Origin: a virus
DNA length: 47,571 nt
Direction: 5' to 3' (one strand)
Virus genome (UHGV): UHGV-2008342
Shown here piece after piece: positions 2,621 to 35,764 of this stretch (positions are counted from its first letter, which is position 1; every line of letters begins with the position of its first letter). The notes beneath the pieces were generated by a model. It was not told the origin of the DNA, ran no database searches, and saw only the letters and a program-made list of their open reading frames with translations. The translations under genes were made by a program, and so were the position numbers.

Positions 2621-3211
2621 ATGTCTCGAATTTTTGCTTACTGTCGGATATCAACGCTGGATCAGACCACCGAAAATCAACGCCGGGAAATCGAAAGTGC
2701 AGGTTTTAAAATCAAACCTCAGCAAATAATCGAAGAACACATTAGCGGCTCAGCAGCAACCAGTGAGCGTCCTGGTTTTAACCGGTTGCTTGCTCGCCTG
2801 AAATGTGGTGATCAATTGATTGTGACAAAACTGGATCGCCTTGGTTGTAATGCAATGGATATCAGGAAAACAGTGGAACAACTGACCGAAACAGGTATCA
2901 GAGTGCATTGCTTAGCATTGGGTGGCATTGACCTGACCAGTCCAACAGGAAAAATGATGATGCAAGTAATTTCAGCAGTCGCTGAATTTGAACGAGACCT
3001 TTTACTTGAACGCACTCATTCCGGGATAGTAAGAGCCCGCGGCGCAGGGAAACGTTTTGGTCGACCACCTGTGTTAAATGAAGAACAGAAACAGGTGGTA
3101 TTCGAACGAATTAAGTCAGGTGTAAGTATAAGTGCCATTGCCCGGGAATTCAAAACCTCGCGGCAAACCATTTTAAGAGCCAAAGCAAAACTTCAGACAC
3201 CTGACATATAA
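2621..3211 (+). CDS. pinQ: Pin/Gin/Cin/Hin-family serine DNA invertase
   Basis: 196 aa, N-terminal [15 protein letters not shown] with catalytic serine context, C-terminal HTH. Adjacent to tail-fibre genes as in e14, Qin, Mu and P1. Confidence 0.9.
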
Positions 3212-3308: not shown

Positions 3309-3884
3309 CTACGGCAGGGCTGGCCATTCAATATCCTGTGCAGTTGACGTATCAACACGGTTCAGCAATACCCGATACTTTTTCCATGCTTCCAGCAACG
3401 AGATTTCTTCCTCCGTTGCAATTTCCAGATCTGCAGCATCCTGAAGCGGCGCAATATGCTCACTGGCTACCTGCATCAGGTTGTTTTTTGTTTCTTCCGC
3501 CTCCCGGATCCGGAACAGTTTTTCTGCTTCCGTATCCTTCACCCAGGCTGTGCCGTTCCACTTCTGAAACTCCCCTTCCGGCGATAACCAGGTAACATTT
3601 TCCGGTAACGGACCGAGTTCAGAAATAAATAACGCGTCGCCGGAAGCCACGTCATAAACCGTTTTACCCCGATGATCTTCAACGAGATGCCACGATGACT
3701 CATCACTGTTGAAAACAGCCACGAAGCCAGCCGGAATATCTGGCGGTGCAATATCGGTACTGTTTGCTGGCAGACCTGTATGAGGCGGAATATATGCATC
3801 ACCTTCACCAATAAATTCATTAGTTCCGGCCAGCAGATTATAAATTTTTATGGTCCGTGGTTGTTCACTCATTCTGAATGCCAT
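3309..3884 (-). CDS. tfa: tail fibre assembly protein (Tfa)
   Basis: 191 aa, Tfa-family sequence; start overlaps the stf stop at 3884. Confidence 0.85.
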
Positions 3885-6800
3885 TATGCAAGCCTCACAA
3901 TATAGTTAAATGCGATGTTTTTGACGGTGTTTTCCGCGTTACCAGCAGCGTTAACGGTGATGGTGTGTCCATGTGAACCAATCGCAACGGAGTGCGTATG
4001 AGCACCAATACCGACAGTATGCGCGTGTGCACCTGCAGATGCTGCTGTGCCGGACAGTGAGTGGCTATGATTACCATCTGTACTGGTATTAGCTAACCAC
4101 CCCGTAGACATACCTACTGAGCCTTGTACACCCCAGGTATTTTGACCTGAGCTTGTATAACCATATTGATAAGTATCTTTAAAAACACTGGGGTTAAATC
4201 GACGGCCATCTCTATGGCTGTGATTACCAGCTGCATTCGTGCTGCCACTTAAACTATGGGTATGCGCACCAGTGTTATTCGTGGATTTAGTGCCGTAATC
4301 AAACGACGATGTGGTTTTCGTCCCCAAATCCGTACTGGATGCGCTGGCGCTGTGGGTATGCGATTTAATGCCGTCCTGTTCCTGAGACAATACGGCCCGA
4401 CCACTGGCAGGTTTGCCCTTAATCGTCCAGCCACGCATATCAGGGATCACGCCTGACGGATAAGCCGCTGCAAGTTTCGGGTATGCAGATTTGTCAAAAG
4501 TCTGCCCCTGCATCAGGGCATAGCCAGACGGAACGGTATCTGATGGCCACGGGATTGGTGCACCGACTGGATAAAACTCTGCAGGAGGATGAGCCGAGGT
4601 GTAAAGCTGCGCCCACGGCGACCAGTTTGCGTCGGTCGTATCCCGTCGTGAACGAATAAATGCCGGAGCATGAGCACCGCTTGTACCACTCCAGCCGATG
4701 AGTAACTCACCTTCGCCAACGGCTGTCATCCCTTTCAGGTGAATGATATTTCCATACGCTGTTGGATATCCGTTGTTATACACCTCGTATAACTCAAGAC
4801 CTGTTGCCCCCTGCGTATTGTCTGTCAGCGCGGTTACCCGACCTTTTGAAGACAGATTAACTGATGATACTGCTGTTCCACCTGACGGTAACGCCCCGAT
4901 CTCTGATGCCGTTGGCTTATTTCTGGAGTTATAGTCCCTTCGCCAGCCAGGTGAATAATCTGTTCCGTGATTAATATAGGTAAACTGGGCGTTAGTTGTT
5001 CCACCACCAGTGGAGGTGGTCGGTGTGGTAATGCGGATCGTCATCGCTGACTTTATCCCCATTACTTCAATGACAGCTCCGGCGAGATGAATATTACCGC
5101 AGTCAGTATCAGTAATGATTTTATTATTGCCATAAGACCAGGAACCCTTGCACATCCAGTAGGGATGGTTAAATGCTCCCTGAGAATCCAGCCACTCGAT
5201 AAACTGTGCAGTCGTCCAGTTTCCTGTTATTGTGCTTACTGACCCACCAAAGGCACGGCAGGCACCAATATTTTTCGTAAAGGTGTCTTTGCCAGGGATA
5301 TCCGCACCGTTCTGATCTTTCTGCAGACGTTTCTCAGCATTGTCATAGGCTGTTTTTACTGCCTTTGGTGTCGCGGCAAGCGTTTCAGACGTGCTGTTGG
5401 TCGCGCTGCTTAGCTGGATTATCCCTTTCTGTGCTGTCGTTGCATCCTGTGCGGTGTATTTCCCGTTAGCCAGGTCATACGCGGCCTTAACGGCTTTTGG
5501 TGTTGCCGCCAGTGACTCGGAAGTGCTGTTAGTCGCACTACTGAGCTGTACTATCCCCTTTTTCGTCGTGCTCGCATCCTCAAGCGCCACGGCGGATGCA
5601 ATATCCTCTGCCCGTTTTGCCGCTGTCTCAGCGCGCGTTGCTGCAGATTCCGCCGTACTTTTGCTCTGAGCTGCTGCCTTCGCACTACCAGCAGCCTCTG
5701 TCGCCTTCGTGGATGCCGTCGTGGCGCTGCCCTTCGCTGCTGACGCCTGTCTGGTCGCCTCATCTTTTGAAGCAGACGCCGATGATGCCGATGACGCCGC
5801 CGAACTGGCGGACGATGCCGCTGCCGTTTTTGAGGATTCTGCACGGGTTTCCGACGCTTTCGCGTTCGTTTCGGATGTCTTCGCTGCGGAAGCTGACCTC
5901 GCTGCTGCCGTGGCCTGCTCAGTGGCTTCGCCAGCCTTCGTTGTGGCTGTTGAAGCGGATGATGCGGCGCTTTCTGCCGATTTTCCGGCGGCGGTGGCAC
6001 TGGCTGAGGCCTGCCCGGCACTTGTTGACGCGGCACTGGCAGACGACGCAGCCGCTGTTTTTGAGCCTGCCGCAGCTGAGGCGCTCTGTCCCGCTGCCGT
6101 CTCAGAAGACCTGGCGTTCGTCTCGGACGTTTTTGCCGCCTTCGCGGAATTTCCTGCCGCCGTTGCCGAGGAAGCTGCGCTACTGGCGCTCAAGGATGCG
6201 TTCGTTTCTGATGATTTCGCTGCCTCTTTTGAGGCCGCCGCATCCCGGGCTGAGGTGGCAGCTTCTGACGCTTTCGTGGTCGCGGTGGATGCAGAAGTGG
6301 CGGCTGATTGTTCTGACGCTGCGGCATTCGTTTCTGACGTTTTCGCCGCACCGGCACTGGTAGCTGCCACGCTTTTTGAGGACTCTGCAGCGGCAGCACT
6401 TTTTGAGGCTTCAGTGGCCTTTGTTGATGCCGTTCCTGCGCTGGAAGACGCTGACTGAGCCGACGAAGCGGCCTGTCCGGCTGACGTGCTGGCTGCACGT
6501 GCTGAATCTGCAGCATCAGTCGCATGGGTTGCCGCCTCACGGGCAGATGTGCTGGCATCACTGGCTGACTTCTTCGCGGCTGCCGTGTTCTGTGCCACCA
6601 CGGACGCGTTACGCGCCACCTCTTCCACCATCAGTTCAAAACGGCGCAGTGCCTCAGGACGGGCATCATCCTCCGTCATGGCACCGAGAAAATCATTCAG
6701 CGTACCGGGTCGGGAATCTTCATACACGGTGATGGTCCCGGCATGTGACGGCGGGAATCCTTCCACCAACAGAATAACGCTGTACTGACCGTACTCAACG

Positions 6801-6961
6801 TCCATGCTGTAACGCCCGGCTTCATCCGGATTTTCTGAGGCCAGCGTGTTCACCACCACCGTGGTGCTGTTACGTTTTGCTTTCAGCTGGATTGTGCAGT
6901 TCTGTACCGGTTTTCCTGTGCCGTCTTTCAGTACACCTGAAATCTTTACTGCCATATTCAC
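3884..6961 (-). CDS. stf: side tail fibre protein (Stf)
   Basis: 1025 aa. Long Ala/Ser/Thr-rich low-complexity shaft and a C-terminal His-rich segment (HSHS...[23 protein letters not shown]). Position after lom as in lambda. Confidence 0.85.
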
Positions 6962-7019: not shown

Positions 7020-7619
7020 TCAGAACTTATAACCGACACCCATGATGAAACCGTCAGTGCGCCAGTCGCCACTGCCGGAGCCTTCATAAGCAATATCAAT
7101 GGCCACGGATTCGGTCGGGTTAAACTGCACGCCAGCTCCCCACGCCAGAGACGTGTTGCTGTGGCGACCGTCATCACTTCCGGTCAGCACGTCGTGCGTT
7201 TTCCCCTTGTTGTCAGTTACGCGGAGATAATCCCCGGAGAAAGTCGACACACGGCTGTAAGCCACACCCGCCATCGCATACGCGCTGAACCATTCATTCA
7301 CGCGCACAGACGGCCCCACCATCACGCTGAACCAGCGGTTACGAACGGAATCTTCATGCCAGCGGGTATCGCTGTAATGCGTTTTTTGCTCATCTTCAGC
7401 GTTGGCATAACTGAATGACGTAATCAGCCCCAGCGTGTCCGTAAACTCATAACGGTATTTCACGTTAATCCCGTTCAGATTATCGCTGCCGGGAGCGTTC
7501 GTACGGGCATGAAGATACCCTGCGCTCAGTGTGGCCTGCTGCTCAGACGCCCATGCAGGCGCACCGGATACGGCCAGACAGATGGCTGCGGACAAAATGG
7601 CTGCACAAACTTTACGCAT
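7020..7619 (-). CDS. lom: Lom outer-membrane protein (Ail/OmpX/PagC family)
   Basis: 199 aa, signal peptide ending AWA, C-terminal GYKF beta-barrel terminus. Lambda position between J and stf. Confidence 0.9.
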   Translation of the reverse strand: MRKVCAAILSAAICLAVSGAPAWASEQQATLSAGYLHARTNAPGSDNLNGINVKYRYEFTDTLGLITSFSYANAEDEQKTHYSDTRWHEDSVRNRWFSVMVGPSVRVNEWFSAYAMAGVAYSRVSTFSGDYLRVTDNKGKTHDVLTGSDDGRHSNTSLAWGAGVQFNPTESVAIDIAYEGSGSGDWRTDGFIMGVGYKF

Positions 7620-7686: not shown

Positions 7687-10600
7687 TCAGCTGATACTGA
7701 TGCCTGCGGTGGCTTTCTTCATCACCACAACCAGCAAATCGCTGATACTTGCTGTGGGATACCAGTCATTTACCAGCCATGCTGACACCGAAAACTCCAG
7801 CGTCATGTGGCCGTGACCAGCTGGCATATCAATAACACCACTGTAAATCAGCGTATTATCCAGCGCGGTACGGTTATAAATTTCAGCACCATTTTTCTTC
7901 ACTATCAGGCGGCATGACGAATAAATATCGTTATTCTCCCGCTCATGTTTAGCGCCGCAGAATGCCACCGCCGGAATAACAATTTGCCTGTCAAAAGGCT
8001 GATCGTCATAAATCCTGACGGTAATGGTCCCTGATGGCCACCGCTCCGGTGCCCGGGAGTCCCGCGGGAAAGCCTTACCCACTGTTTTGACAATATCGCC
8101 TTCAATCTGGTTGGCTGACAGTTTCCCTTTAATCTGACAGTTCTCATTTATCGTAACGTTGTTGAGCGTCCCGGAGTTCGCATTCACACTGCCACTGATA
8201 TCTGCATTTTTAGCGGTCAGCTTTCCGTCCGGTGTCAGGGAAAATGCAGGAGGATTACCGCCGCTGGTAATGGTGGGAGCCGTCAGATATTTCAGGAACA
8301 CTTCATTCATGAATATCTGATCACCCTGACCAACAAACATCGGTTTTGTGTTGCCATTTGCAGGATTAATCATCGCAATCCTGTCTGCCGCCAGCAGCAC
8401 CTGACTCTGCATGCCGTCGGGGGTGTTCTCAATACCGGCACCGATACCCGCGATATAAAGGCGTCCGTCCTGCATCTGCTGCAGCTTCACAGCCCACATG
8501 CTGTTCAGATTATTATTTGTATCAACCTGAACCTTCTGTATCTGCTGGATCGCTGCACTCTGGTCTTCCAGTTTCTTATTGACGGTCTGTGTGATTTCAT
8601 TGCTGACATCCGTAATGGATGTCCTGATTTCAGCCAGGTCAGGCGCAAGCTGACCGTTATCAATCTGCGTCCACAGCTCCTGAGCCAGATGGGTTTTCCC
8701 TATCTCGCCTTTGAAAAAATCCAGATAGCCGGATGCGTCATCACTCGGCTGACCAACAGCCTCCACGAATGCCGATTTGCCAACGGTGTTCACACTGCGA
8801 ACGTAAAAATAATAATTATGGCCCGGCCTGATATTGATACTGGCGGCTATCCAGTACAGCGCCGTGCCAAGATAGCGTGCTGTGGTTTCAACCTGCCTGA
8901 TATCCGCAATCCGCTTTTCCGAGAACCAGAACTCAAACTGTACCGTCGGATCATAAACCGCAAGATGCGGCGTGGCGGTTATCTGAAAATAGCCCGGCGT
9001 CAGCTCAATCCGCGACGGCGCTGCCGGTGCGGCAATCCGGAACGATACCGACGCCGGATCGCCCTGCTGCCCCCACGCATTTACTGCCCGGACTGTCAGC
9101 CTGTAGTTCCCCAGAGCCAGTTGTGTGAAGCGGTAAGTGGTTTCCGTCGTCCGGGCCGTGCTGACCAGCCGCTCACTGCCGTCATCCGCTGCCACGGTCA
9201 GGCGAAGCATGAAACTCACGCCCTTCACCACCTTCGGCGTGTCCCAGCGGGCCAGTACCTGATACTCCCCGCTGTCTGCGGTGACTTCGGCAGTCAGGTG
9301 CTGCACTGCTGGCGGCGTGACACCATTCACCGTGCCGCTCTGGTCGCCGTCAAAGTGCGCCCCGTTATCCACGATAGCTTCTTTTTCCGGTACATGCTGC
9401 ACGGCGGTGATGGCATACGTGCCGTCGTCGTTCTCACGGATACTCACGCAGCGGAACAGGCGCTGGCGCAGCGTCGGCAGCTTCAGCCCCCATACGCTGT
9501 ATCCGGCAACGCCGTCAGGAACACGGCTCACTTTTACCTTCACGCCGTCGGTGACGGACTGGACCTCCACGCTGACCGGATTGCCACTTCCGTCAACCAG
9601 GCTTATCAGCGTGGTACCGGAGGATGGCAGCGTGATTTCACGGTCGAGCGTCAGCGTCCGGGTCTGGCTGTTCACCGCCAGCACGCGCCCGCCGGTGCTG
9701 ATCCCCGCATAGTCATCATCGCAGATTTCAATGACATCGCCCGGCACATGGCGAAGCCCTTCCGCACCCACGCTGAAGTCCACGGTCTGCGTTTCCAGTA
9801 GTTCCGTTTTAATCAGCCACAGCCCGGCGCGGTGCGCCTGCCCCCGGCTGGTACAGCCAAAGGCATCCATCTTCGTGACGTTACGACCGTAACGGAGAAT
9901 GGCCTGCGTATCTTCAACAAGCTCTGTCGCCGTCTCCCAGCCGTTATCCGGGTCAATCCAGTTCACCTCAACGGCATTATGACGGTCCTTCAGGGCACTG
10001 AAGCTGTAGCGGAACGGCGCGCCATCATCCGGCATCACCACATTACTGCAGTTATAGGTCCACACCTTATCCGACGGTCGGTCCTGCACGAACGTCAGCG
10101 TCTGCCCGTTCCATACCGGCATACAGCGCATCGCCGAGCAGAAATCACTGAGAACATCCCACGCCTTGCGCTGTGTGGTCAGCCAGGCATTACAGGTGAT
10201 GCGCGGCTCCGTGCCACCAAAGCCATCCGGCACCGACTGGTCGCAATTCTGGCCGATGACATACAGCGCCCATTTGTCCACATCCGCCGCACCGAGACGC
10301 TTCCCCATGCCGTAGCGCGGATGGGTCAGCATATCCCACAGACACCAGGCCATGTTGTTGCTGTATGCTGGCTTAAACGTTCCGTCCCAGATACCGCTGT
10401 ATTGCCGCGTCTGCGGGTTATAGTTCGACGGCACCTGCAGAATGCGCCCGCGAAGATGATAATTACGGCTCACCTGCTGGCTGCCGAACTGTTCCGAGTC
10501 CACCTGCACGCCGACCAGTGCCGTGTTCGGGTAGCACTGTTTCACATCGATGATTTCGGTGTATGACGACCAGAGCGTTTTGTTCTGCAGCTGGTCTGTG

Positions 10601-11166
10601 GTGCTGTCCGGCGTCATTCTGCGCATCCGGATATTAAACGGGCGCGGCGGCAGGTTATCCACCACCACCGAGGCCAGATACTGCGAGGTGGTTTTGCCCT
10701 TAATGGTGATGTCTTTTTCCGTCACCCAGCCACCATTACGCTGTATCTGAACCAGCAGGCGAACTTCCGACGGATTCCGGTCCCCCTTTGAGGTGGTTTC
10801 CACCAGTGCCTGCACACCGAAGGTAAAGCGCAGTCGGTCGATGTTTGCCGACGTGATGGCGCGGGTGATCGGCGTGTCGTATTTCACTTCCGTACCCAAC
10901 ACCGTCTCGGAGCCGGAGGATTCAAATCCCTCCGGCGGTGTCTGCTCCTGCTCACCAGCCCGGAACACCACCGTGACACCGGCGATGTTGGTATTCCCAT
11001 CACTGTCCAGCACCGGCGTACTGTTCAGCAGCACGCTTTTTAATCCATCCACCGGACCTTCAATCGGCCCTTCACTGATGGCATCAATCACACTCAGCAA
11101 CTGCGTGGACTTCAGGTTGTCCTTCGCTTCGCGCGGGGTATGCCCCTTACTGCTTCCTTTACCCAT
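7687..11166 (-). CDS. J: tail tip host-specificity protein J
   Basis: 1159 aa. N-terminus [37 protein letters not shown] matches lambda J as I recall it. Central and C-terminal regions diverge from lambda. Confidence 0.95.
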
Positions 11167-11226: not shown

Positions 11227-11898
11227 TCAGCGACCAATCACCACAACCTGACCACCGTCCCCTTCGTCTGCCGTGCTGATCTCCTGAGAAACCACGCGTG
11301 ACCCCACGCGCATTTCCCCGTACAGAACAGGCAGAACATTGCCCTGGGCAACCATGTTATCCAGTGAGGAGAAATAGGTGTTCTGCTTACCGTTATCCGT
11401 TGTCTGTGTACGGGGAGTTCTGGCTTTCGGTGCCAGCATCTGCGCCACACCACCGAGCACCATACTGGCACCGAGAGAAAACAGGATGCCGGTCATACCA
11501 CCGGCCCCAATGGCTGCCCCCCATGCTGCAAGGGTGGCTCCGGCGGTAAAGAATGATCCGGCAATGGCGGCAGCCCCCAGGACAATCTGGAATACGCCAC
11601 CTGACTTGGCCCCGGCGACTCTGGGAACAATATGAATCACAGCGCCATCAGGCAGAGTCTCATGTAACTGCGCCGTTAACCCGGACGTGCTGACGTCCCG
11701 CCCGGCAATCCGTACCTGATACCAGCCGTCGCTCAGTTTCTGACGAAACGCCGGGAGCTGTGTGGCCAGTGCCCGGATGGCTTCAGCCCCCGTTTTCACA
11801 CGAAGGTCGATGCGGCGACCAAATCGTTGTAAATCCCCGTAAAGGCAGATGCGCGCCATGCCCGGTGACGCCAGAGGGAGTGTGTGCGTCGCTGCCAT
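11227..11898 (-). CDS. I: tail assembly protein I
   Basis: 223 aa, MAATHTLPLASPGMARICLYGDLQRFGRR; overlaps K as in lambda. Confidence 0.95.
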   Translation of the reverse strand: MAATHTLPLASPGMARICLYGDLQRFGRRIDLRVKTGAEAIRALATQLPAFRQKLSDGWYQVRIAGRDVSTSGLTAQLHETLPDGAVIHIVPRVAGAKSGGVFQIVLGAAAIAGSFFTAGATLAAWGAAIGAGGMTGILFSLGASMVLGGVAQMLAPKARTPRTQTTDNGKQNTYFSSLDNMVAQGNVLPVLYGEMRVGSRVVSQEISTADEGDGGQVVVIGR

Positions 11899-12539
11899 TT
11901 GTCGGTGTACCTCTCTCGTTTGCTCAGTTGTTCAGGAATATGGTGCAGCAGCTCGCCGTCGCCGCAGTAAATTGCGGCGTGATTCGGCACCGATGAACCA
12001 AAACAGCACAGCAGCACATCGCCCGGCTGTGCCGCTGACAACGGCACCTGATACAGCCCCGTCGCCTCCAGATTATCCAGATAGAGATTCTGGCCGTTAC
12101 GCCACCAGTCATCCTCACGATGAAAGTCCGGCATCTCAATCCCCGCCAGATGATAAGCATCCCGGAACAGTGTGTAACAGTCCGTCACACCGTGCTCAAA
12201 GCGCCGCCCGGTGAGATGCGGCACACAGCGGAACTTATGAATCGTCCCCCGGCAGACCAGCCACCACGGCAAATCACTCTGCACCTGCAGCCGCCGGTCG
12301 GCCTCACTCAGCCAGGGCAGACCACCGGGGTGGCTGTGGACCAGCGCCACAATCTCACCCTGCATTTCTGCCTGCAGCCAGTCTTCCGGCGACATACGGA
12401 AATACGCCTCCGGCTCACCGGAGATATTCACGCAGGGGAAATATCTTTCCCCCTCCGGCGTGCTTACCACGAAGCCGCACGACTCCGCTGGCGCACATCG
12501 CCGGGCGTGCGCCAGAATCGCTGATTCTGTCTGTGTCAT
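11796..12539 (-). CDS. K: tail assembly protein K (MPN/JAMM plus NlpC/P60-like)
   Basis: 247-aa ORF containing an HSHPGG motif. Start is 6 bp after the L stop. The classical 199-aa lambda K would begin at the internal MSPEDWLQ (12395). Confidence 0.9.
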   Translation of the reverse strand: MTQTESAILAHARRCAPAESCGFVVSTPEGERYFPCVNISGEPEAYFRMSPEDWLQAEMQGEIVALVHSHPGGLPWLSEADRRLQVQSDLPWWLVCRGTIHKFRCVPHLTGRRFEHGVTDCYTLFRDAYHLAGIEMPDFHREDDWWRNGQNLYLDNLEATGLYQVPLSAAQPGDVLLCCFGSSVPNHAAIYCGDGELLHHIPEQLSKRERYTDKWQRRTHSLWRHRAWRASAFTGIYNDLVAASTFV

Positions 12540-12544
12540 GGGAT

Positions 12545-13243
12545 TTACTGCGAAAGTTTGTTAATGGAAAGGAAGCCGCCAAAGTTGCCGACGTTATTGC
12601 GGAACTTACAACCGCTCAGGCATTTGCTGCATTTATCCTTCGTGATATCGGACGTTGGCTGGTCATATTCATCCGCGACAGCCGGACCGCTATAACCGCA
12701 CTCGTCACCGCGATAGGTCCAGGTGCAGGTGTTGGCCAGCATGATACGTCCCGGAAAAACAGCGCCATCCGTTTCCGTCGGCGTGGACAGTACAAAAGAG
12801 GCACTCACCGCGCTCAGTTCGCTGCACTGCTCAATGCGCCAGCGGCTGATCACCTCCTGCTCCGGATCGGCGCCACTGTTTCCGTTGACGAAGTTCACCG
12901 CATCCAGAAAACGGGCGTAAACCTTACGCCGGACCACCGTTCCACCGACCAGACTCTGCAGATCTTCCGCCATCCCGGTGACCATACCGTACAGGTTAGA
13001 AACCGTCAGTGTGGGGCGCGTACTGGTGCCTTTGCCATTCAGTTCAAAACCACTCCCCTGAATGGGATACGGCTGATACTGTCGCCCCTGCCAGGTGACC
13101 GGCTCACCTTTTTCGTTCTGCTCATTACAGAAAAAATAACGTTCTCCACCGACCTCTGTCAGGTCGATTTCCCAGAGCACCACGCTGGCCGACTGCTCCG
13201 CACGGGTGCATTCATTCAGTGTTTCCTGCCGGATATCCTGCAT
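12545..13243 (-). CDS. L: tail assembly protein L
   Basis: 232 aa, MQDIRQETLNECTRAEQSASVVLWEIDL, with C-terminal Cys cluster. Confidence 0.95.
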   Translation of the reverse strand: MQDIRQETLNECTRAEQSASVVLWEIDLTEVGGERYFFCNEQNEKGEPVTWQGRQYQPYPIQGSGFELNGKGTSTRPTLTVSNLYGMVTGMAEDLQSLVGGTVVRRKVYARFLDAVNFVNGNSGADPEQEVISRWRIEQCSELSAVSASFVLSTPTETDGAVFPGRIMLANTCTWTYRGDECGYSGPAVADEYDQPTSDITKDKCSKCLSGCKFRNNVGNFGGFLSINKLSQ

Positions 13244-13572
13244 CAGTTCACCACCTGTTCAAACTCTGCGCTGAACTCAACACGCAGCATACTGACCCGC
13301 GACGACCATTTTGCGCAGGTCACCTTTATCTGCCGCCACTCATAAGGCGGCGTCCACAGAAAGGCTTTCCAGCCCCCGTGCTCAGCCAGAAACGACTCCA
13401 GCGCCGTGGCCTCCCAACGGGGAACAGAAAGCGTCACGCTGTACGTTTTCAGGTCGGCATTCAGCCCGGCAGGCGCTCGCTGGGAATAGCCATCACCAAA
13501 GCGCACTTTCCTGACGGAAGGGGCCGAAGCCACATCCATACCGGGTTTCACTTTCCAGCGGAAGGTCTTCAT
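13243..13572 (-). CDS. M: tail assembly protein M
   Basis: 109 aa, MKTFRWKVKPGMDVASAPSVRKV. Confidence 0.95.
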   Translation of the reverse strand: MKTFRWKVKPGMDVASAPSVRKVRFGDGYSQRAPAGLNADLKTYSVTLSVPRWEATALESFLAEHGGWKAFLWTPPYEWRQIKVTCAKWSSRVSMLRVEFSAEFEQVVN

Positions 13573-16148
13573 CGTCCACCTCCGGAGAACAGACCACCAT
13601 CGCGCATCTGTGCCTGAATTTCATCACGGGCACCCTTGCGGGCCATGTCATACACTGCCTTCATCATCTGTGGACCTGGCAGACCATTCGTACCGTCGTT
13701 CTGAATCACCACGTGATTGTTCTGATTAAAATTAATGCCTTCAGCCCGCCGCATCTGCGCCGGACTTCCGGCACCGCCCACATAACCACCTTCCGCATAG
13801 CCCCGCATCAGGCGGTACAGGTTGCCGACACCAATTCGGCTGGTTGCCTCCTTCGTGAAGACAAATTCACCACGGTGAACAATCCCCGCTGGCTCATATT
13901 TGCCGCCGGTTCCCGTAAATCCTCCGGTTGCAAAATGGAATTTCGCCGCAGCTGCCTGAATGGCTGTACCGCCTGATGCGGATGCGCCGCCACCAACAGC
14001 CCCGCCAATGGCGCTACCGATACTCCCGACAATCCCCACCATTGCCTGCTTAAGCAGAATTTCTGTCATCATGGACAGCACGGAACGGGTGAAGCTGCGC
14101 CAGTTCTGCTCACTGCCGGTCAGCATCGCCGCCATATTCTGCGCAATACCATCAAAGGTCTGCGTGGCTGCACTTTTAACCTGCGACATACTGTCCGTGG
14201 CGCTCTCTTCCCACTCACTCCAGCCGGACCTGAGGCCTGCCATCCAGCTCCCGCGAAGCTGGTCTTCAGCCGCCCAGGTCTTTTTCTGCTCTGACATGAC
14301 GTTATTCAGCGCCAGCGAATTATCGCCATACTGTTCCTTCAGGCGCTGTTCTGTGGCTTCCCGCGCTGCCTGCCGGTCAGTAAGCCCCCGGTTTTTCGCC
14401 TCAATGGCGGCCCGTTTTGCCCGTTGTTGCTGTGCGAACTTATCCGCCTGCTGCGCCAGCGCGTTCAGGCGCTCCTGATACGTAACCTTGTCGCCAAGTG
14501 CAGCCAGCTGGCGTTTGTACTCCAGCGTCTCATCTTTATGCGCCAGCAGGGATTTCTCCTGTGCGGACAGCTGGCGACGTTGCGCCGCCTCCTCCAGTAC
14601 CGCGAACTGACTCTCCGCCTTCCACAAATCCCGGCGCTGCTGGCTGATTTTCTCATTTGCTCCGGCATGCTTCTCCAGCGTCCGGAGTTCAGCCTGAAGC
14701 GTCAGCAGGGCAGCATGAGCACTGTCTTCCTGACGATCGCCCGCAGACACTTTCACGCCGGACTGTTTCGGCTTTTTCAGCGTCGCTTCATAATCCTTTT
14801 TCGCCGCCGCCATCAGCGTGTTGTAATCTGCCTGCAGGATTTTCCCGTCTTTCAGTGCCTTGTTCAGTTCTTCCTGACGGGCGGTATATTTCTCCAGCGG
14901 CGTCTGCAGGCGTTCGTAAGCCTTCTGCGCCTCTTCGGTATATTTCAGCCGTGATGCCTCAGACTCGGCCCAGTCCTTTGCTGCCATCTCTCTGGCCTTT
15001 TCAAGATCGGCCTGCAACGTGGCGGCTGAAAGCCCAAGTTGCGCATTCGCTCTGTCCTCCCATGCTCCCCGGAGATTGGCAAGAAATGCTGAGGTTTTAC
15101 CGCGCCGGTGGCTTCGGCTCTGATACCACTGCCATTTTTTGTCCGCCTCATCAAAAGCCTTTTCTGCTTTCTCCAGCATTCCCTGGGCAGTGTCCGGGCG
15201 ACCAATATCCAGCACCGAATCCCACATGGATTTGAATGCCCGTGCTGTCCTGTCTGCCCAGGTCTCCAGCGTGCCCATGTTCTCTTTCAGGCGGCGGGTC
15301 TGGTCATCAAACCCTTTCGTTGCGGCCTCGTTCGCCGCCTGCAATGCCCCGGCTTCATCTCCGGAACGCTGCAACTGAGCAACATACGCAATCTGCTCCG
15401 CCGTCACGTTATGGAACTGACGTGCCATCGCTGTCAGTCCCGACGTCGGGTCTGTGGTCAGCTTCCCGAAGGCTTCAGCGACCTTGTCCACCTCCACGCC
15501 GGATGCAGAGGAGAAACGCGCCACACTCTGGCTGATCGCCTCAAACTGCTCACCACCACGCACACCGGCATTCACCAGCGCCGTCAGTGACTCGCTGGTC
15601 TGGTTAAACGTCAGCCCTGCCGCCTGCCCGGCTCTGGACAGGGCCAGAATACGATCTGCCGTCAGTCCCGCCTGATTGCCGGAAAGGACCAGCGTTTTGT
15701 TGAAATCGGACAGGGTTGAGTTGCCCTGATACCAGGCATACGCCAGCGCACCGGTCGCCACCGCCAGCGAGGTGGCCCCCACCATCGGCAGGGTGATCGC
15801 ACCGGCAAGCCCCCTGAACATGGGGATCATCCCGCCGAAGGAGTCCTTAACCTGACCACCCTGTTGCAGCAGGATCAGCCACGGACTTTGCCCGCCTGCA
15901 AGCTGCGTGGCCACGTCGGTGAACTGTGCAGGCAGCATACGCATGGCGGCTTTATACTGCCCGACGGAAATCCCCGCTTTCTGTGCAGCCAGCGCCTGTC
16001 GGCTCAGCGACTGTTCAACGACTGCCGCTGTTTTTTTCGCATCAGTTTCCGTACCGGAAAAATGACGCCTGACTCTGGCCATCTGCTCGTCAAATCTGGC
16101 CGCATCCAGACTTAAATCAACGACCAGATCGCCTACCGGTTCAGCCAT
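13569..16148 (-). CDS. H: tail tape measure protein H
   Basis: 859 aa, MAEPVGDLVVDLSLDAARFDEQMARVRRHF, long coiled-coil and Gly-rich regions. Confidence 0.95.
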   Translation of the reverse strand: MAEPVGDLVVDLSLDAARFDEQMARVRRHFSGTETDAKKTAAVVEQSLSRQALAAQKAGISVGQYKAAMRMLPAQFTDVATQLAGGQSPWLILLQQGGQVKDSFGGMIPMFRGLAGAITLPMVGATSLAVATGALAYAWYQGNSTLSDFNKTLVLSGNQAGLTADRILALSRAGQAAGLTFNQTSESLTALVNAGVRGGEQFEAISQSVARFSSASGVEVDKVAEAFGKLTTDPTSGLTAMARQFHNVTAEQIAYVAQLQRSGDEAGALQAANEAATKGFDDQTRRLKENMGTLETWADRTARAFKSMWDSVLDIGRPDTAQGMLEKAEKAFDEADKKWQWYQSRSHRRGKTSAFLANLRGAWEDRANAQLGLSAATLQADLEKAREMAAKDWAESEASRLKYTEEAQKAYERLQTPLEKYTARQEELNKALKDGKILQADYNTLMAAAKKDYEATLKKPKQSGVKVSAGDRQEDSAHAALLTLQAELRTLEKHAGANEKISQQRRDLWKAESQFAVLEEAAQRRQLSAQEKSLLAHKDETLEYKRQLAALGDKVTYQERLNALAQQADKFAQQQRAKRAAIEAKNRGLTDRQAAREATEQRLKEQYGDNSLALNNVMSEQKKTWAAEDQLRGSWMAGLRSGWSEWEESATDSMSQVKSAATQTFDGIAQNMAAMLTGSEQNWRSFTRSVLSMMTEILLKQAMVGIVGSIGSAIGGAVGGGASASGGTAIQAAAAKFHFATGGFTGTGGKYEPAGIVHRGEFVFTKEATSRIGVGNLYRLMRGYAEGGYVGGAGSPAQMRRAEGINFNQNNHVVIQNDGTNGLPGPQMMKAVYDMARKGARDEIQAQMRDGGLFSGGGR

Positions 16149-26884: not shown

Positions 26885-27118
26885 ATGTCAACGAAGAACA
26901 GAACCCGCAGAACAACAACCCGCAACATCCGCTTTCCTAACCAAATGATTGAACAAATTAACATCGCTCTTGAGCAAAAAGGGTCCGGGAATTTCTCAGC
27001 CTGGGTCATTGAAGCCTGCCGCCGGAGACTGTGCTCAGAAAAAAGAGTTTCTTCTGAAGCAAACAAAGAAAAGAGTGACATTACTGAATTGCTCAGAAAA
27101 CAGGTCAGACCAGATTGA
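26885..27118 (+). CDS. ynfO: small basic, probably DNA-binding prophage protein (YnfO/YlcI-like)
   Basis: 77 aa, Arg/Thr-rich N-terminus, central RFPNQMIEQINIALEQKGSGNFSAWVIEACRRRL. Transcribed opposite to the flanking late genes. Position and length match my recollection of Qin ynfO. Confidence 0.5.
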   Translation: MSTKNRTRRTTTRNIRFPNQMIEQINIALEQKGSGNFSAWVIEACRRRLCSEKRVSSEANKEKSDITELLRKQVRPD

Positions 27119-27175
27119 AGCAATTTAGATAATCGTGCAGACTACGCCCCCTCATATCACATGGAAGGTTTATCT

Positions 27176-27586
27176 ATGGATCAGGTAGTCATTTTTAAAC
27201 AAATATTTGATAAAGTTCGAAACGATTTAAACTATCAATGGTTTTATTCTGAGCTAAAACGTCACAATGTCTCACATTACATTTACTATTTAGCCACAGA
27301 GAATGTTCATATTGTATTAAAAAATGATAATACAGTGTTATTAAAGGGCCTAAAAAACATTGTGTCTGTCAAATTTTCAAAGGATAGGCATCTTATAGAA
27401 ACGACCTCTAATAAGCTGAAATCCAGAGAGATCACATTTCAGGAATACAGAAGAAACCTTGCTAAAGCAGGAGTTTTTCGGTGGGTTACAAATATCCACG
27501 AACAAAAAAGATATTACTATACCTTTGATAATTCATTACTATTTACTGAAAGCATCCAGAAAACTACACAGATCTTACCACGCTAA
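27176..27586 (+). CDS. ydfO: YdfO/YbcV-like protein (DUF1398-type)
   Basis: 136 aa from [27 protein letters not shown]; ATG at 27176 with a GGAAGG SD. Antisense to the late operon. Confidence 0.55.
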
Positions 27587-27737
27587 ACCATAACGTCCGG
27601 CTTCTCTCACTCCTGAGCCGGACTGCATTGGTTTAATAAAAACCATCAACAATTGTGATTTAGATATTCGGAACCATTCAAATATAACAAAACCCCGTAA
27701 AAACGAGGTTTATGGATAAATTTTATTATTGAATACA

Positions 27738-27911
27738 TCAGATTAAATTAATCTTGACATCATAGCTTTCAAGACCCGTCATTTTTTCCCGTGCGGTAAA
27801 CTGAATACTGGTAACTTCTTTCCCGGTCTTTTTCTTAAGTTCAATAATTTTTTTTGTTATATATTCAGAAATATCTGCTTCTGCTTTTGTTTTTAAGTTT
27901 TCAATATTCAT
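27738..27911 (-). CDS. gnsB: GnsA/GnsB-family small protein
   Basis: 57 aa, MNIENLKTKAEADISEYITKKIIELKKKTGKEVTSIQFTAREKMTGLESYDVKINLI, translated by hand. Below the ORF-track cutoff. Confidence 0.75.
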   Translation of the reverse strand: MNIENLKTKAEADISEYITKKIIELKKKTGKEVTSIQFTAREKMTGLESYDVKINLI

Positions 27912-28082
27912 CATTTCCTCTTTTAGTCTGTTATGACTTTCCAGTTACACAGTAAGTCGATTATATGGTGCAAACGTGTAAAAGATAAGATGAAACATCG
28001 CAATAATCAACATACGATAGTCTAAATTTTACACAAACAGACAAAGAAAATTTTCCTGAATTATCAATACAATAGCATCAAA

Positions 28083-28313
28083 TCAACTCAAGAGCCTTAT
28101 TGCTGCTTCCAGAATTTCTTCTGAAGTAACATGTCGATCCGCGGCTACATAAATGACTTTATGATCTCCGGTCAGAGATGGAAACCCTGCGGCCATTACA
28201 GTAAGGTGTGTTTTTTCGCCATTTGGATATTCACGCATGATGGTGTTAACTCCAGTCATCGCTGGCACTACCACTGCAGGTTCAGAGTTAAAAAAAACTA
28301 TGATTTTTTTCAT
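28083..28313 (-). CDS. hypothetical small protein at the ynfN position
   Basis: 76 aa from ATG at 28311-28313 (MKKIIVFFNSEPAVVVPAMTGVNTIMREYPNGEK...). The longer track ORF begins at a TTG. Identity with K-12 ynfN is uncertain. Confidence 0.4.
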   Translation of the reverse strand: MKKIIVFFNSEPAVVVPAMTGVNTIMREYPNGEKTHLTVMAAGFPSLTGDHKVIYVAADRHVTSEEILEAAIRLLS

Positions 28314-28361
28314 GATGTTACCGTAGTATGTGAGTATCCATCGAATAGATACCAAGCAAAA

Positions 28362-28388
28362 AAGCTCCCGAAGGAGCCTTCATTTTCA
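28362..28388 (-). terminator. candidate intrinsic terminator downstream of cspI
   Basis: Minus-strand hairpin GGCTCC-TTCG-GGAGC followed by TTTTTT. Confidence 0.4.
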
Positions 28389-28584
28389 CTTTTTTAAATC
28401 CAACGACAGACGGCTGGCATTTAAGTATTGTGAAATATTATCAAATGTAATCATCATTGATTTACAAAAGATACATTTTGCCCCGAAAGGATTCATGTCA
28501 GAAACATCAAAAGATGATGTTCTATACTGGGAACCATGACAACACGGGCATCTAAAGTGAATATGGTTTGTAATATTGTCTACC

Positions 28585-28797
28585 TCAAAGCGCCACTACA
28601 TGAACAGCGGCAGGACCTTTAGGTCCGTTCTCAATACCAAATTCAACTTCCTGATTCTCAGTTAATGTTTTGAAATCGTTGCTCTGAATTGCTGAGAAAT
28701 GGACAAACACATCTTTGCTGCCATCTTTCGGCGTGATGAAACCAAAACCTTTTTCAGGGTTAAACCATTTCACTAAACCAGTCATTTTGTTAGACAT
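28585..28797 (-). CDS. cspI: CspA-family cold shock protein
   Basis: 70 aa, [37 protein letters not shown] with RNP1/RNP2 motifs. Qin cspI position. Confidence 0.85.
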
Positions 28798-29160
28798 AAT
28801 TATTACCTTTTGAAGAAATTAGCCCTTGGGCAGAATGGTCCGAAAAAAAATATCAGAGAGAAAAACCAACAAGGAAATCTCAAGAGGTACAAATAATAAA
28901 ATTATAACAATGACTGCTTCAGATAAATTTGTAACAAACCAGAACACCATTAACGCATGATTAACCACCCATAGCAAGGATTACTTTTGTAAAGAAAAAC
29001 ACAGCAATGAAAGAATAGCTTTATTTATTAATAATAACGTGTCATTCTGATTAAGACCTTTTATCTTACCCTTAAGATTTCAGGAATTTTGGCTCATGGA
29101 AGAGTCCTTTTTATTTAAATTTTACATTCCGCGATGTAAATGTTCCGATTTAATATTACC

Positions 29161-30184
<1,024 letters not shown>

Positions 30185-30188
<4 letters not shown>

Positions 30189-30935: not shown

Positions 30936-31106
30936 ATGTCAGAACGTAAAAACTCAAAATCACGCCGTAATTATCTCGTTAAATGTTCCTGCCCAAACTG
31001 CACCCAAGAGTCAGAACACAGTTTTTCAAGAGTACAAAAAGGTGCCCTTTTGATCTGCCCTCATTGCAACAAAGTATTCCAGACAAATCTTAAAGCTGTA
31101 GCCTGA
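30936..31106 (+). CDS. small putative zinc-ribbon protein (CxxC...CxxC)
   Basis: 56 aa MSERKNSKSRRNYLVKCSCPNCTQESEHSFSRVQKGALLICPHCNKVFQTNLKAVA with AGGA upstream. Antisense to the lysis/late genes. Confidence 0.45.
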   Translation: MSERKNSKSRRNYLVKCSCPNCTQESEHSFSRVQKGALLICPHCNKVFQTNLKAVA

Positions 31107-31165
31107 TTGATTTTATTAGTAACAAGTATTTTTTATATTTTAATAATATATTTAAAGCAGATAAT

Positions 31166-31186
31166 AAAAAACCCGCCTGAGCGGGT
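31166..31186 (-). terminator. intrinsic terminator, strongest on the minus strand, downstream of cspB
   Basis: Hairpin ACCCGC-CTGA-GCGGGT with a run of A on the plus strand, giving a T-run on the minus strand. Confidence 0.55.
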
Positions 31187-31469
31187 TTGAGATTGTGGTG
31201 CTTTTTGTGGGAGTCATCCACTTACGCACTTTGTTTTGCCATGCCAGCAGTTAGCTTCTGCTGTAAAACTATTCATGCAGCAAACCTGCACTTCACCACA
31301 ATGGTTAGCATACTTTTCCTGATTAAGATTTTGCCAAATATGCTAGCCATTGTTTCATGTATTGGACCTCCTTACTTTTTATTAAAGAGATCCAATATTC
31401 ACTACTCTGTCCGTATCTCTACTCAGGCATCAGCCTTCTTCGTTATCGTATACAGACGAGCGATGAATT

Positions 31470-31685
31470 TTAATCAGTAATGATGACATTTGCTGCTGCA
31501 GGACCTTTAGCACCACTCTCTATAGAGAAGGTAACCTTTTGACCTTCAAATAAGGTTCGATAATTATCATTCTGAATCGCAGAAAAATGCACAAACACAT
31601 CTTTACTACCATCAACAGGAGAAATAAAGCCGAAACCTTTATCAGCGTTAAACCATTTTACTAAACCAGTCATTTTATTTGACAT
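31470..31685 (-). CDS. cspB: CspA-family cold shock protein
   Basis: 71 aa, [37 protein letters not shown]. Confidence 0.85.
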
Positions 31686-31985
31686 TCTACATTCCTTAAC
31701 TTGAGCCTTTCGGCATAAATGGTTTGCATAACAGAAACGACTTCGTACTTAATTGGAGAGACTCAAAGAAGGAATAAGTGAATAACACCTGAAATGAGAA
31801 CTGCTTTAGTAAACTACTTCGTATATCGTCTGTTCTTCAAACCGACGCAATCATTAACGCATAGTTGAACATATGAAGCAATGTTTATTTTAGACATCCA
31901 GCCATCTTCAACCCCATCAAAAAACTATAGCTTTCTTCAGGAACGTGTGTATAGTGCGCCAAGTTATCAGTATTAAGGAATTTTT

Positions 31986-32198
31986 TTGTCCCGTAAAATG
32001 ACAGGAATTGTCAAAACCTTTGACGGCAAAAGCGGCAAGGGTCTTATCACCCCATCCGATGGTCGTATCGATGTCCAGCTTCATGTCTCAGCGCTCAATC
32101 TCCGCGATGCAGAAGAAATTACCACCGGATTACGCGTGGAATTTTGCCGGATAAATGGTCTGCGTGGCCCTTCAGCTGCCAATGTTTACCTTTCATGA
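31986..32198 (+). CDS. cspF: CspA-family cold shock protein paralog, divergent from cspB
   Basis: 70 aa [41 protein letters not shown]. The first codon in the sequence is TTG. Confidence 0.75.
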
Positions 32199-32619: not shown

Positions 32620-33372
32620 TTATCTCGTCACCTTCCTCAATTGCGCTTCCGCGTATGCTTCTTCCTGCCAGCACTTTGTTACCAGTTTACCAATGACGTC
32701 CGCATACCCCTTATACCACTGATAATCGGTCAGGTCTGGTACCAGCTTCTGGACATGACGTCGTGCCAGCGTGGTCGGTAAACGACTAAACCGGTTTCCA
32801 TTACAACGCCCACAAATCTTATATACCGGTACGCCATGAAACCGGGTTCTTTTTTCATCCAGAACAATCCCTTTACCCTTACACCCTCTGCACGCTGTGC
32901 TGGTTTCGCCCTTACCATGGCAATGCTGACATAGTTCCTTCACCCATTCTTCCTTGATTACAGATTCCCCGCGTCTGTAGTGTTTCACCACTTCGCGCAA
33001 TACATTATAAAATCCCGTACCTGAACAATGCTCACAGCGAGCCTTACTTGCCGCAGACCTGGAGTAATCAGCAAAGGCAAAACTCACGAGGTAAGGAATA
33101 ATCTGTAACCGGATTTCTTCACTCAATTTGTTCAATGTCGGGTTATCCAGTGCCATCGCGTAATTTAGCAGGCCTTCAATCGCAAACTGAGGGTCCTGAA
33201 CACCAACTTTTGCCAGAAATAAGGCCAACCCAAGTGGTGCTTTCGACTGCACCATCCCCTGCGCTGCCATTACATCCGTAATTGTTAAACAACCGGTGCC
33301 TGTCGCTGGAGCGTCATCGCTCAATTTTGGAGATTTTGGGGAGTAATATTTTGGTAAGGCTTCAAGGTTCAT
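32620..33372 (-). CDS. quuQ: late-gene antiterminator Q
   Basis: 250 aa from MNLEALPKYY (ATG verified at 33370-33372). C-terminal Cys/His clusters CEHCSGTG...CQHCHGKGE...CRGCKGKG...CGRCNG. Position upstream of the lysis genes. Confidence 0.8.
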   Translation of the reverse strand: MNLEALPKYYSPKSPKLSDDAPATGTGCLTITDVMAAQGMVQSKAPLGLALFLAKVGVQDPQFAIEGLLNYAMALDNPTLNKLSEEIRLQIIPYLVSFAFADYSRSAASKARCEHCSGTGFYNVLREVVKHYRRGESVIKEEWVKELCQHCHGKGETSTACRGCKGKGIVLDEKRTRFHGVPVYKICGRCNGNRFSRLPTTLARRHVQKLVPDLTDYQWYKGYADVIGKLVTKCWQEEAYAEAQLRKVTR

Positions 33373-33385
33373 GCTCGTTCTCCAC

Positions 33386-35249: not shown

Positions 35250-35405
35250 TTACTCCTCAGGTTCGTAAGCTGTGAAGACAGCGACCTCCGTCTGGCCGGT
35301 TCGGATTCGTACCTCGCAGAGGTCTTTCCTCGTTACCAGTGCCGTCACTATGACGGTTAAACAGATGACGATCAGGGCGATTAACATCGCCTTTTGCTGC
35401 TTCAT
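35250..35405 (-). CDS. hokD: Hok-family type I toxin
   Basis: Hand translation gives MKQQKAMLIALIVICLTVIVTALVTRKDLCEVRIRTGQTEVAVFTAYEPEE (51 aa). Below the track cutoff. Downstream of relE as in the relBEF operon. Confidence 0.85.
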   Translation of the reverse strand: MKQQKAMLIALIVICLTVIVTALVTRKDLCEVRIRTGQTEVAVFTAYEPEE

Positions 35406-35476
35406 AGCCTGCTTCTCCTGTCAACGCAAAGCAGAAGTGTCACCTTCGGTGCGAAACAGAGATGTCATGCTTTGGT

Positions 35477-35764
35477 TCAGAGAATGCGTTTGACCGCCTC
35501 GCTATATACTTCCGAGCGTTCTCTTTTCCCAACAGAAATCACGAAAACGACAACTTTCTCGTCTATAACCTGGTATACAAGGCGATAGCCTGAAGACCGG
35601 AGCTTAATCTTGTAACAATCAGGCATACCACGGAGCTTGTTTGCTTCAATCCGGGGTGACTCAAGTACTTCAACCAGCTTCTTTTTCAACTGTTCACGTA
35701 CCGTCGAGCCCAGCTTTCGCCATTCCTTTAGTGCCCGCTCGTCAAAATCCAGAAAATACGCCAT
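35477..35764 (-). CDS. relE: RelE mRNA interferase toxin
   Basis: 95 aa, MAYFLDFDERALKEWRKLGSTVREQLKKKLVEVLESPRIEANKLRGMPDCYKIKLRSSGYRLVYQV. Confidence 0.9.
   Translation of the reverse strand: MAYFLDFDERALKEWRKLGSTVREQLKKKLVEVLESPRIEANKLRGMPDCYKIKLRSSGYRLVYQVIDEKVVVFVISVGKRERSEVYSEAVKRIL

Follow-up and report, generated by a model that had tools for sequence, protein, structure and literature searches.

The question raised by this locus is which outer-membrane receptor is recognized by a J protein whose body follows lambda J and whose C-terminus departs from it. The gene is located in a viral genome of 47,571 nucleotides (UHGV-2008342), hereafter the window, and is the lambda gpJ homologue of a lambda-like E. 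coli prophage. The ORF starts with the same 16 residues as lambda J, is 83% identical to it overall and has in common with it the length class, the gene position and the six-domain architecture (UniProt P03749; PDB 8IYK, 8XCJ/8XCK). Pfam models are found in the order PF24801, PF13550, PF24421, PF24489, PF09327 and PF12421. The N-terminal hub domains are present (PF24801, 142 bits; PF13550, 144 bits), FNIII-A_GpJ spans aa 86-207 and Phage-tail_3 spans aa 330-498, while PF24421 (aa 610-714), PF24489 (aa 716-818), PF09327 (aa 872-1000) and PF12421 (aa 1029-1159) are all matched far above their cut-offs. Based on the ORFs of the window, the lambda annotation and the PGAP annotation of the prophage of E. 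coli EC11, J follows H-M-L-K-I and precedes lom-stf-tfa, and the tail genes upstream of it (11227..16148, minus strand) stand in the same order as in lambda (Table 1). The prophage is of full length and is inserted in ydfJ, where the prophage Qin sits in K-12. The EC11 prophage is 99.7% identical to that of the window, and the J gene is 99.9% identical to the genes annotated as “gpJ: phage attachment tail tip protein J” in EC11 and other E. coli. Among the neighbors of J, the side tail fibre retains 71% identity to lambda Stf (orf-314) in its final 230 aa. The long plus-strand ORFs within J (e.g. 8689-9801) were dismissed, being artefacts on the antisense strand of a gene rich in GC.

Both the identities of individual segments and the DNA identity profile exclude a uniform divergence of J from its lambda counterpart. 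Over aa 1-815, the protein differs from lambda J by 27 substitutions; the first-pass annotation, which described the N-terminus as identical to lambda, was right about the match (97%), with strict identity limited to the first 54 aa. The corresponding part of lambda gpJ, residues 1-807, has been resolved by cryo-EM of the tail tip (PMC12617516). In phage 21 (OL657228.1), J is annotated as the central tail fibre and is of nearly the same length (1160 vs 1159 aa); aa 1-960 of the window J are 98% identical to it, including the long allele of the helical shaft.

The replacement of a central segment, noted in the same annotation, is borne out by the alignment with lambda. Over aa 816-905, identity drops to 42% across 62 aligned positions and 27-28 residues are inserted, their placement being approximately aa 836-862 (window 8581-8661); the next segment, aa 906-960, recovers to 65%. 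The DNA identity falls in parallel, to 28-72% over nucleotides 2432-2880 of the gene. At lambda aa 822-837, where lambda has ITESHLGKELLEKVEL, other residues are found in the window J, and the helical shaft of lambda, the alpha-helical shaft (AHS) described in PMC11101478, is ~27 residues shorter than that of the window J and partly unalignable with it. The Pfam scan assigned no model to aa 819-871. Hydrophobic residues at aa 840-866 show a 3-4-3-4 spacing, and a helix is placed at aa 841-877 by a single-sequence AF2 model of aa 801-1159, a single-chain model of low confidence (mean pLDDT 44.9, pTM 0.35) that served as a secondary-structure hint only.

Between this block and the diverged C-terminus, the DNA identity to lambda rises again to 94% in a short conserved linker (aa 961-1002), which is the likely site at which the receptor domain became joined to the fibre body by recombination. 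The fusion point of the gpJ chimeras constructed by Brödel et al., lambda aa 964, falls in the same stretch (PMC11338833), and the linker is usable as a natural joint for receptor-domain swaps.

Past the linker, the C-terminus of J matches PF12421 (Ig_GpJ_C, the gpJ C-terminal receptor-binding domain, RBD) with E=2.8e-37 and 128 bits (cut-off, 26 bits), at window positions 7690-8082. When aligned with lambda J, as had been proposed in the first-pass annotation, aa 1003-1159 show 45% identity with one 1-residue gap, and the last 96 residues (aa 1064-1159) show 35%. The close identity to lambda J aa 976-1132 that would characterize a lambda-type RBD is absent, and four of four variable patches differ. 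Accordingly, the C-terminus previously described as unrelated to lambda is divergent and at the same time a homologue of the lambda RBD; the divergence begins near aa 1003, and not with the ~150 residues said to follow a 14-residue motif, because this motif occupies aa 1050-1063 and is followed by 96 residues. In a phmmer comparison with the solved gpJ C-terminal fragments, E-values of 1e-120 for A8 and 1e-98 for lambda were obtained, so that the resemblance is not due to chance.

The RBD is closer to several domains other than that of lambda. It is 69% identical to the RBD of phage 21, with two indels, 68% to that of A8, the two differing in two variable patches by a deletion of 4 residues and an insertion of 5, 50% to that of Salmonella Fels-1, 93% to that of Stx2a_WGPS2 (146 of 157 residues, without indels) and at least 89% to that of the engineered gpJ 1A2. 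Among solved structures, A8 gpJ (PDB 9wca) scores highest with the C-terminal 294 residues of the window J, and its neck is identical to the window J at aa 1003-1030. The 1A2 sequence was machine-read (OCR) from a PDF (Supplementary file 1 of PMC11338833); a blastn search of the window RBD against this published, OCR-read DNA yielded no match, tblastn was fragmented by OCR-induced frameshifts, and a frameshift-tolerant protein-to-DNA alignment was therefore employed, in which 144 of the 164 aligned readable residues are identical. Because of the OCR errors, this 89% is a lower bound, and the identity is bounded at ~89-95%. The RBDs of 1A2 and Stx2a_WGPS2 are themselves 95% identical, and the window RBD belongs to the same class, being collinear at ~90% identity or more, with no indels. 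This class is shared by natural J alleles of O157/O55 prophages (Stx2a_WGPS2, VT1-Sakai, PPompW, JLK-2012), whereas the body of the natural O157 J proteins is far more diverged (56-79% identical to the window J). The 11 differences from the WGPS2/1A2 type are Q1011R, I1012V, K1013L, I1025L, I1052V, C1070S, N1078H, N1079T, K1090R, D1134N and A1152S, of which N1078H, N1079T and D1134N lie within the hypervariable patches (~aa 1035-1044, 1070-1085, 1097-1109 and 1127-1140). These patches probably form receptor-contact loops.

Table 1. Positions of J, its segments and the adjacent tail genes in the window
Feature	Residues of J	Position in the window	Strand	Basis and remarks
J gene, tail tip attachment/host-specificity protein (central tail fibre)		7687..11166	minus	1159 aa, intact ORF
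Tail-tip cone module of the lambda/phage 21 type, with hub domains and a pair of FNIII/Ig-like domains	1-815	8722..11166	minus	97% identity to lambda, 98% to phage 21; Pfam
Long variant of the alpha-helical shaft (AHS)	816-905	8452..8721	minus	42% identity to lambda with gap; 98% to phage 21
Central straight fibre, upper part of the beta-prism (as in phage 21)	906-960	8287..8451	minus	65% identity to lambda, 98% to phage 21; inside PF09327 Phage_Tail_Tip (aa 872-1000)
Conserved fibre linker	961-1002	8161..8286	minus	98% identity to lambda, 90% to phage 21, 79% to Stx2a_WGPS2
Receptor-binding module, last beta layers and Ig-like RBD, 1A2/O157-prophage type	1003-1159	7690..8160	minus	PF12421; predicted receptor OmpC
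lom homologue, Ail/Lom outer-membrane beta-barrel		7020..7619	minus	PF06316 Ail_Lom, E=3e-125; next gene downstream of J, an arrangement shared with lambda
stf, side tail fibre		3884-6961	minus	1025 aa; PF08400, PF03406, PF07484
tfa, tail fibre assembly		3309-3884	minus	PF02413
Gene I		11227-11898	minus	ORF; PF06805; PGAP annotation of EC11 prophage
Gene K		11796-12539	minus	ORF; PGAP annotation of EC11 prophage
Gene L		12545-13243	minus	ORF; PGAP annotation of EC11 prophage
Gene M		13243-13572	minus	ORF; PGAP annotation of EC11 prophage
Gene H, tape measure		13569-16148	minus	ORF; PGAP annotation of EC11 prophage

The suggestion that the diverged C-terminus implies an outer-membrane receptor different from that of lambda gains support from functional data on the near-identical domain of 1A2, in which lambda gpJ residues 1-964 are joined to a natural C-terminus (Brödel et al. 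2024, Nature, PMC11338833). In a lamB/ompC double mutant, 1A2 delivers DNA only once OmpC of the EDL933 type is supplied, and it fails on wild-type K-12, which offers LamB and the K-12 OmpC; delivery reached ~98% in K-12 with the EDL933 OmpC and 2-5% with its own K-12 OmpC, regardless of whether LamB was present or absent (PMC11338833). Strains of O157 have been targeted with 1A2 particles. Furthermore, in PDB 9wcb, A8 gpJ(713-end) and OmpC chains are found in one complex; A8 accepts the K-12 OmpC, whereas 1A2 does not. By analogy with these domains, the receptor of the window J likely differs from LamB and is probably OmpC, and for the prophage in the window we would predict the use of OmpC, probably in its non-K-12 alleles.

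Taken together, these observations are best explained, in our view with good confidence, by a J protein that is a trimeric central tail fibre built as a three-module mosaic and carrying an RBD of the O157/1A2 type that most likely binds OmpC. The first module (aa 1-815) forms the tail-tip cone, whose hub and FNIII domains are, like the fibre shaft, of the lambda/phage 21 type; the second (aa 816-960) comprises the “long” AHS allele, also present in phage 21, together with the upper beta-prism; and the third, past the linker, is the Ig-like RBD in the allele of O157:H7 prophages and 1A2. If the conformational mechanism described for lambda (PMC11101478) extends to the window J, as the lambda structures suggest, the bottom loops of the three RBDs would dock on a porin trimer. 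This porin would most likely be OmpC, and its non-K-12 (EDL933-like) alleles would be preferred. Docking would spread the bases of the RBDs, whereupon the beta-prism would twist, the helical shaft would flip and the tail-tip cone would open, resulting in DNA ejection.

Several other readings of the same data have to be weighed. It is conceivable, albeit unlikely, that the 11 differences from the 1A2/O157 type, including three in loops that probably contact the receptor, give the allele a distinct spectrum of OmpC alleles or an extra porin, or that the longer shaft alters the standoff of the tip or the transmission of the trigger; in either case, nature would have supplied a variant of use in redirecting delivery particles based on lambda.

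The RBD class maps imperfectly onto the receptor, since the RBD of phage 21, the native receptor of which is LamB, is 82% identical to that of the OmpC-binding A8; OmpC use by phage 21 is gained by one J mutation (PMC11336670), and OmpF is likewise reached through mutation. This, and the 69% identity between the RBDs of phage 21 and the window, would be compatible with retention of LamB as in lambda and wild-type phage 21, the divergence of the RBD then reflecting co-evolution with LamB alleles. We consider this quite improbable, given that identity of the RBD to lambda is only 35-45% and that the much closer relative 1A2 (~89-95%) reached only 5% delivery on wild-type K-12 at an MOI of 50, against 97.7% for lambda gpJ through LamB at an MOI of 174 (PMC11338833).

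Receptor use is labile among the lambda-like J proteins, in which one mutation can suffice for the gain of a receptor. In evolved lambda and phage 21, a few mutations in J give access to OmpF (PMC11101478, PMC11336670), and the J protein of Salmonella Gifsy-1, the C-terminal region of which has a reported identity of 18% to lambda, binds OmpC, OmpX and BtuB. According to their published descriptions, phage 434 J and Gifsy-1 J are precedents for the use of OmpC by lambda-like J proteins, the receptor being switched through exchange of J or of its C-terminus. The three substitutions in the hypervariable patches could similarly direct the window allele to another or to several outer-membrane proteins (OmpF, OmpX, BtuB and others). 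This possibility appears just as improbable as the retention of LamB, because 146 of the 157 residues are common to the O157-prophage type and most of the differences are either conservative or located in the neck, where the window J agrees with A8, also an OmpC binder. Least probable of all is that J is a relic of a defective prophage and its receptor specificity is without present function: the site is that of the defective Qin, a fragment of an ISNCY transposase lies inside the prophage and in the EC11 copy the Q antiterminator is split by an IS3 element, but J is uninterrupted over 1159 aa, no head or tail gene is missing between terminase and tfa and the Q gene of the window, which stops before the integrase, is intact and lacks IS3.

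The mosaicism of J in favor of which the segment identities argue is real and is an instance of the already known modular shuffling. Exchange of the J C-terminus, with switching of the host range between LamB and OmpC, has been familiar since hybrids of lambda and 434 were described, and the engineered gpJ chimeras of today make use of it. The RBD of the window is a very common variant that has been described before, so the value of the finding beyond correct annotation is small and lies in the receptor prediction for the prophage (OmpC, probably non-K-12 alleles).

A search for homologous proteins returned only near-identical partial J sequences from contig ends, from which no diverse alignment could be obtained, and the literature search found no paper on the PhiR phages, in which an RBD of this type occurs. 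A receptor-prediction preprint of 2026 deals with GpJ of Drexlerviridae and not with lambdoid RBDs. No other RBD class is as common among the prophages of E. coli: of the 5426 complete E. coli genomes, 3365 contain DNA of this class, and 57 phage records contain an RBD at least 89% identical to that of the window. In roughly 57 complete genomes, the RBD DNA matches that of the window at 99% identity or more. For the cultured phages of this RBD type with a recorded laboratory indicator host, this host is E. coli C or ECOR13 and never K-12, which is consistent with the failure of 1A2 on the K-12 OmpC.

The J protein of the window, a homologue of the lambda tail tip and receptor-binding protein gpJ, starts with [16 protein letters not shown], is encoded by a single uninterrupted ORF and occupies its place in the lambda tail-gene order, with H, M, L, K and I upstream and Ail/Lom, side tail fibre and tail fibre assembly downstream (see table). 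The complete gpJ architecture was recovered by Pfam, with all domains well over the cut-off. In BLASTP the protein is 83% identical overall to lambda J (J02459, 1132 aa), and identity is distributed in blocks that also appear in the DNA identity profile. On sequence comparison, the three statements made about this gene in the first-pass annotation are genuine and mostly accurate, holding in outline with corrections. The N-terminus, reported as identical to lambda, is near-identical, and the central segment is indeed replaced. C-terminal divergence is present but was placed after [14 protein letters not shown] (aa 1050-1063), beyond which just 96 residues, not about 150, remain; its actual onset is at about aa 1003. 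This C-terminus, described as unrelated to lambda, is a diverged homologue of the lambda receptor-binding domain (RBD; PF12421 match, E=2.8e-37).

Features of the window (nt) and segments of its J protein (aa)
Feature	Position	Details
Pin-family DNA invertase	2621-3211 (+)	pinQ in EC11; ~100 bp from tfa
Tail fibre assembly	3309-3884	downstream of J
Side tail fibre	3884-6961	1025 aa; downstream of J
Ail/Lom	7020-7619	downstream of J
J	7687-11166 (-)	1159 aa
I	11227-11898	upstream of J, after H, M, L, K
H	13569-16148	upstream of J
cspI	~28.6 kb	low-GC island; cold-shock-like, by correspondence with EC11 annotation
cspB/cspF	~31.5-32 kb	low-GC island; cold-shock-like, by correspondence with EC11 annotation
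Q-like late-gene antiterminator	32620-33402 (-)	260 aa
relB-relE and hokD toxin-antitoxin modules, ISNCY transposase fragment, dicB	~35250-36003, 37575-38600, 45200-45390	coordinate mapping to EC11 annotation
FNIII-A_GpJ	aa 86-207	Pfam
Phage-tail_3	aa 330-498	Pfam
Ig_J	aa 610-714	Pfam
Ig_J_second	aa 716-818	Pfam
Phage_Tail_Tip	aa 872-1000	Pfam
Ig_GpJ_C	aa 1029-1159	Pfam
J vs lambda J	aa 1-815	97% identity, 27 substitutions; first 54 aa identical
J vs lambda J	aa 816-905	42% over 62 aligned positions plus 27-28-residue insertion
J vs lambda J	aa 906-960	65%
J vs lambda J	aa 961-1002	98%
J vs lambda J	aa 1003-1063	61%
J vs lambda J	aa 1064-1159	35%, one 1-residue gap

Over aa 1-960, the "replaced" central segment among them, the window protein shares 98% identity with phage 21 J, but only 69% in the receptor domain. 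For J of the O157:H7 prophage Stx2a_WGPS2 the relation is reversed (body 56-79%, receptor domain 93%), and the window J is therefore interpreted as a phage 21-type body carrying a receptor domain of O157-prophage type, with the apparent joint at the conserved aa 961-1002. Among sequenced phages, the shaft and receptor-domain modules assort independently: the long shaft is combined with the window-type receptor domain in the window, vB_EcoS-640R1, PhiR55_1 and PhiR46_1, and with the phage 21/A8-type domain in phage 21, while the short (lambda) shaft is found with the window-type domain in 2G7b and PhiR47_1, with an A8-like domain in 4A7 and with the lambda-type domain in lambda.

Among solved structures, "A8 gpJ 713" (9wca/9wcb) matches the C-terminal part best and lambda gpJ ranks behind it; 9wcb also contains three OmpC chains and is thus a gpJ-OmpC complex. 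In the engineered chimeras A8 and 1A2, lambda gpJ residues 1-964 carry C-termini that occur naturally in E. coli strains; a lamB mutant served for their selection, and their activity was assayed in a lamB/ompC double mutant supplied with 23 OmpC variants (Brödel et al. 2024, PMC11338833). A8 functions with K-12 and EDL933 OmpC, and 1A2 only with the EDL933 type; 1A2 delivery reached ~98% with EDL933 OmpC and, in wild-type K-12, 5% at MOI 50 versus 97.7% at MOI 174 for lambda gpJ (PMC11338833). Because the 1A2 DNA sequence, machine-read from the supplement of PMC11338833, contains indels, it was aligned to the window protein with frameshifts allowed; of the 164 residues that could be read and aligned, 144 are identical, and there are no true indels. 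The Stx2a_WGPS2 receptor domain is 95% identical to 1A2 and 93% to the window J. These identities place the window RBD in the 1A2 class, with OmpC as the best-supported receptor, and the suggestion of a receptor other than that of lambda is supported, since 1A2 is OmpC-dependent. Wherever the records of cultured phages with the window-type RBD name a laboratory indicator host, this is E. coli C or ECOR13 and in no case K-12, which weakly favours the same assignment.

Receptor use is labile among lambda-like J proteins. The phage 21 receptor domain is 82% identical to that of OmpC-binding A8, and phage 21 natively uses LamB, gaining OmpC by one J mutation (PMC11336670); LamB is nevertheless an improbable receptor for the window J. 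Another or additional porin is equally improbable, although Gifsy-1 J binds OmpC, OmpX and BtuB (PMC12312913). OmpC is thus retained, with reasonable confidence, as the predicted main receptor. The window RBD differs from that of Stx2a_WGPS2 at 11 positions, three of which (N1078H, N1079T, D1134N) fall within four hypervariable patches of a five-sequence alignment; these patches are probably counterparts of the four contact loops, L1-L4, described in the lambda gpJ RBD.

Beyond its FNIII domains, lambda gpJ consists of an alpha-helical shaft, a beta-sheet prism that makes up the central straight fibre, and finally the RBD; upon LamB binding the shaft flips and residues 841-861 become beta-strands (PMC11101478). 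In the window J this shaft falls within the replaced block (aa 816-905): aa 819-871 match no Pfam model, aa 840-866 show a 3-4-3-4 spacing of hydrophobic residues and an AF2 model of poor quality has a helix at aa 841-877. Among evenly sampled phage records, about two-thirds have the long shaft (273 nt) and about one-third the lambda-type short shaft (189 nt). Since long shafts are combined with the LamB-using RBD of phage 21 as well as with OmpC-type RBDs, shaft length is not tied to receptor choice.

Modular mosaicism of the kind seen in the window J is textbook knowledge for lambdoid J genes; the function of its receptor-domain class has been characterised through 1A2, a structure with OmpC exists for the relative A8, and the allele is annotated in many genomes. 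A search of the complete E. coli genome collection gave 46 records in which the entire gene is matched at 99% identity or more, and 3856 of 5426 genomes with a match to 80% or more of the gene; for the receptor-domain DNA, the corresponding values are 57 records and 3365 of 5426 genomes, and genomes with any match to it contain a median of 2 copies. Nearly all of the 120 database entries listed (E. coli, Shigella sonnei) match the C-terminal 359 aa at 99-100% identity, and the window-type receptor domain is found at 89-95% protein identity in 57 phage records, including VT1-Sakai, PPompW, JLK-2012 and P-EibA.

Positions 1-31166 share 99.7% identity with an E. coli EC11 prophage (NZ_CP027255.1) that interrupts ydfJ and carries essD, rrrQ, cspI, nohA, tfaQ and pinQ, which identifies it as a full-length relative of the K-12 prophage Qin. 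The integration site is shared, but Qin is defective, whereas the window prophage has a full head and tail gene set. The window begins within truncated ydfJ (1-1284) and ends inside the exonuclease gene, ahead of xis and int. Beyond 31166, identity to the EC11 early region (relBE, hokD, dicB, exonuclease) is 88-99.8%; the same accessory genes (relB-relE, hokD, the ISNCY transposase fragment and the cell-division inhibitor dicB) are found in Qin. In the EC11 prophage, otherwise nearly identical, a 1.26-kb IS3 interrupts the Q antiterminator; the window lacks this element and has an intact Q, so its prophage copy is more likely to be inducible. Two low-GC islands (~27000-29000 and 31000-32000; 34-37% GC versus 55-60% in structural genes) adjoin the lysis cassette (29161-30188).

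pinQ and tfa lie too close together for an alternative fibre-tip cassette to fit in between. Over its last 230 aa, the side tail fibre (Stf) shares 71% identity with lambda Stf (orf-314), the OmpC-binding fibre of Ur-lambda, and aa 917-960 (~4082-4213), inside the His-rich needle, are unalignable to it; Stf and J might thus act on the same porin or on different ones. Stf also contains a long Ala/Ser/Thr-rich low-complexity region (aa ~125-480, ~5520-6590), and the long ORFs on both strands at 5551-6036, 5596-6363, 5709-6458 and 6190-6561 are spurious products of it.
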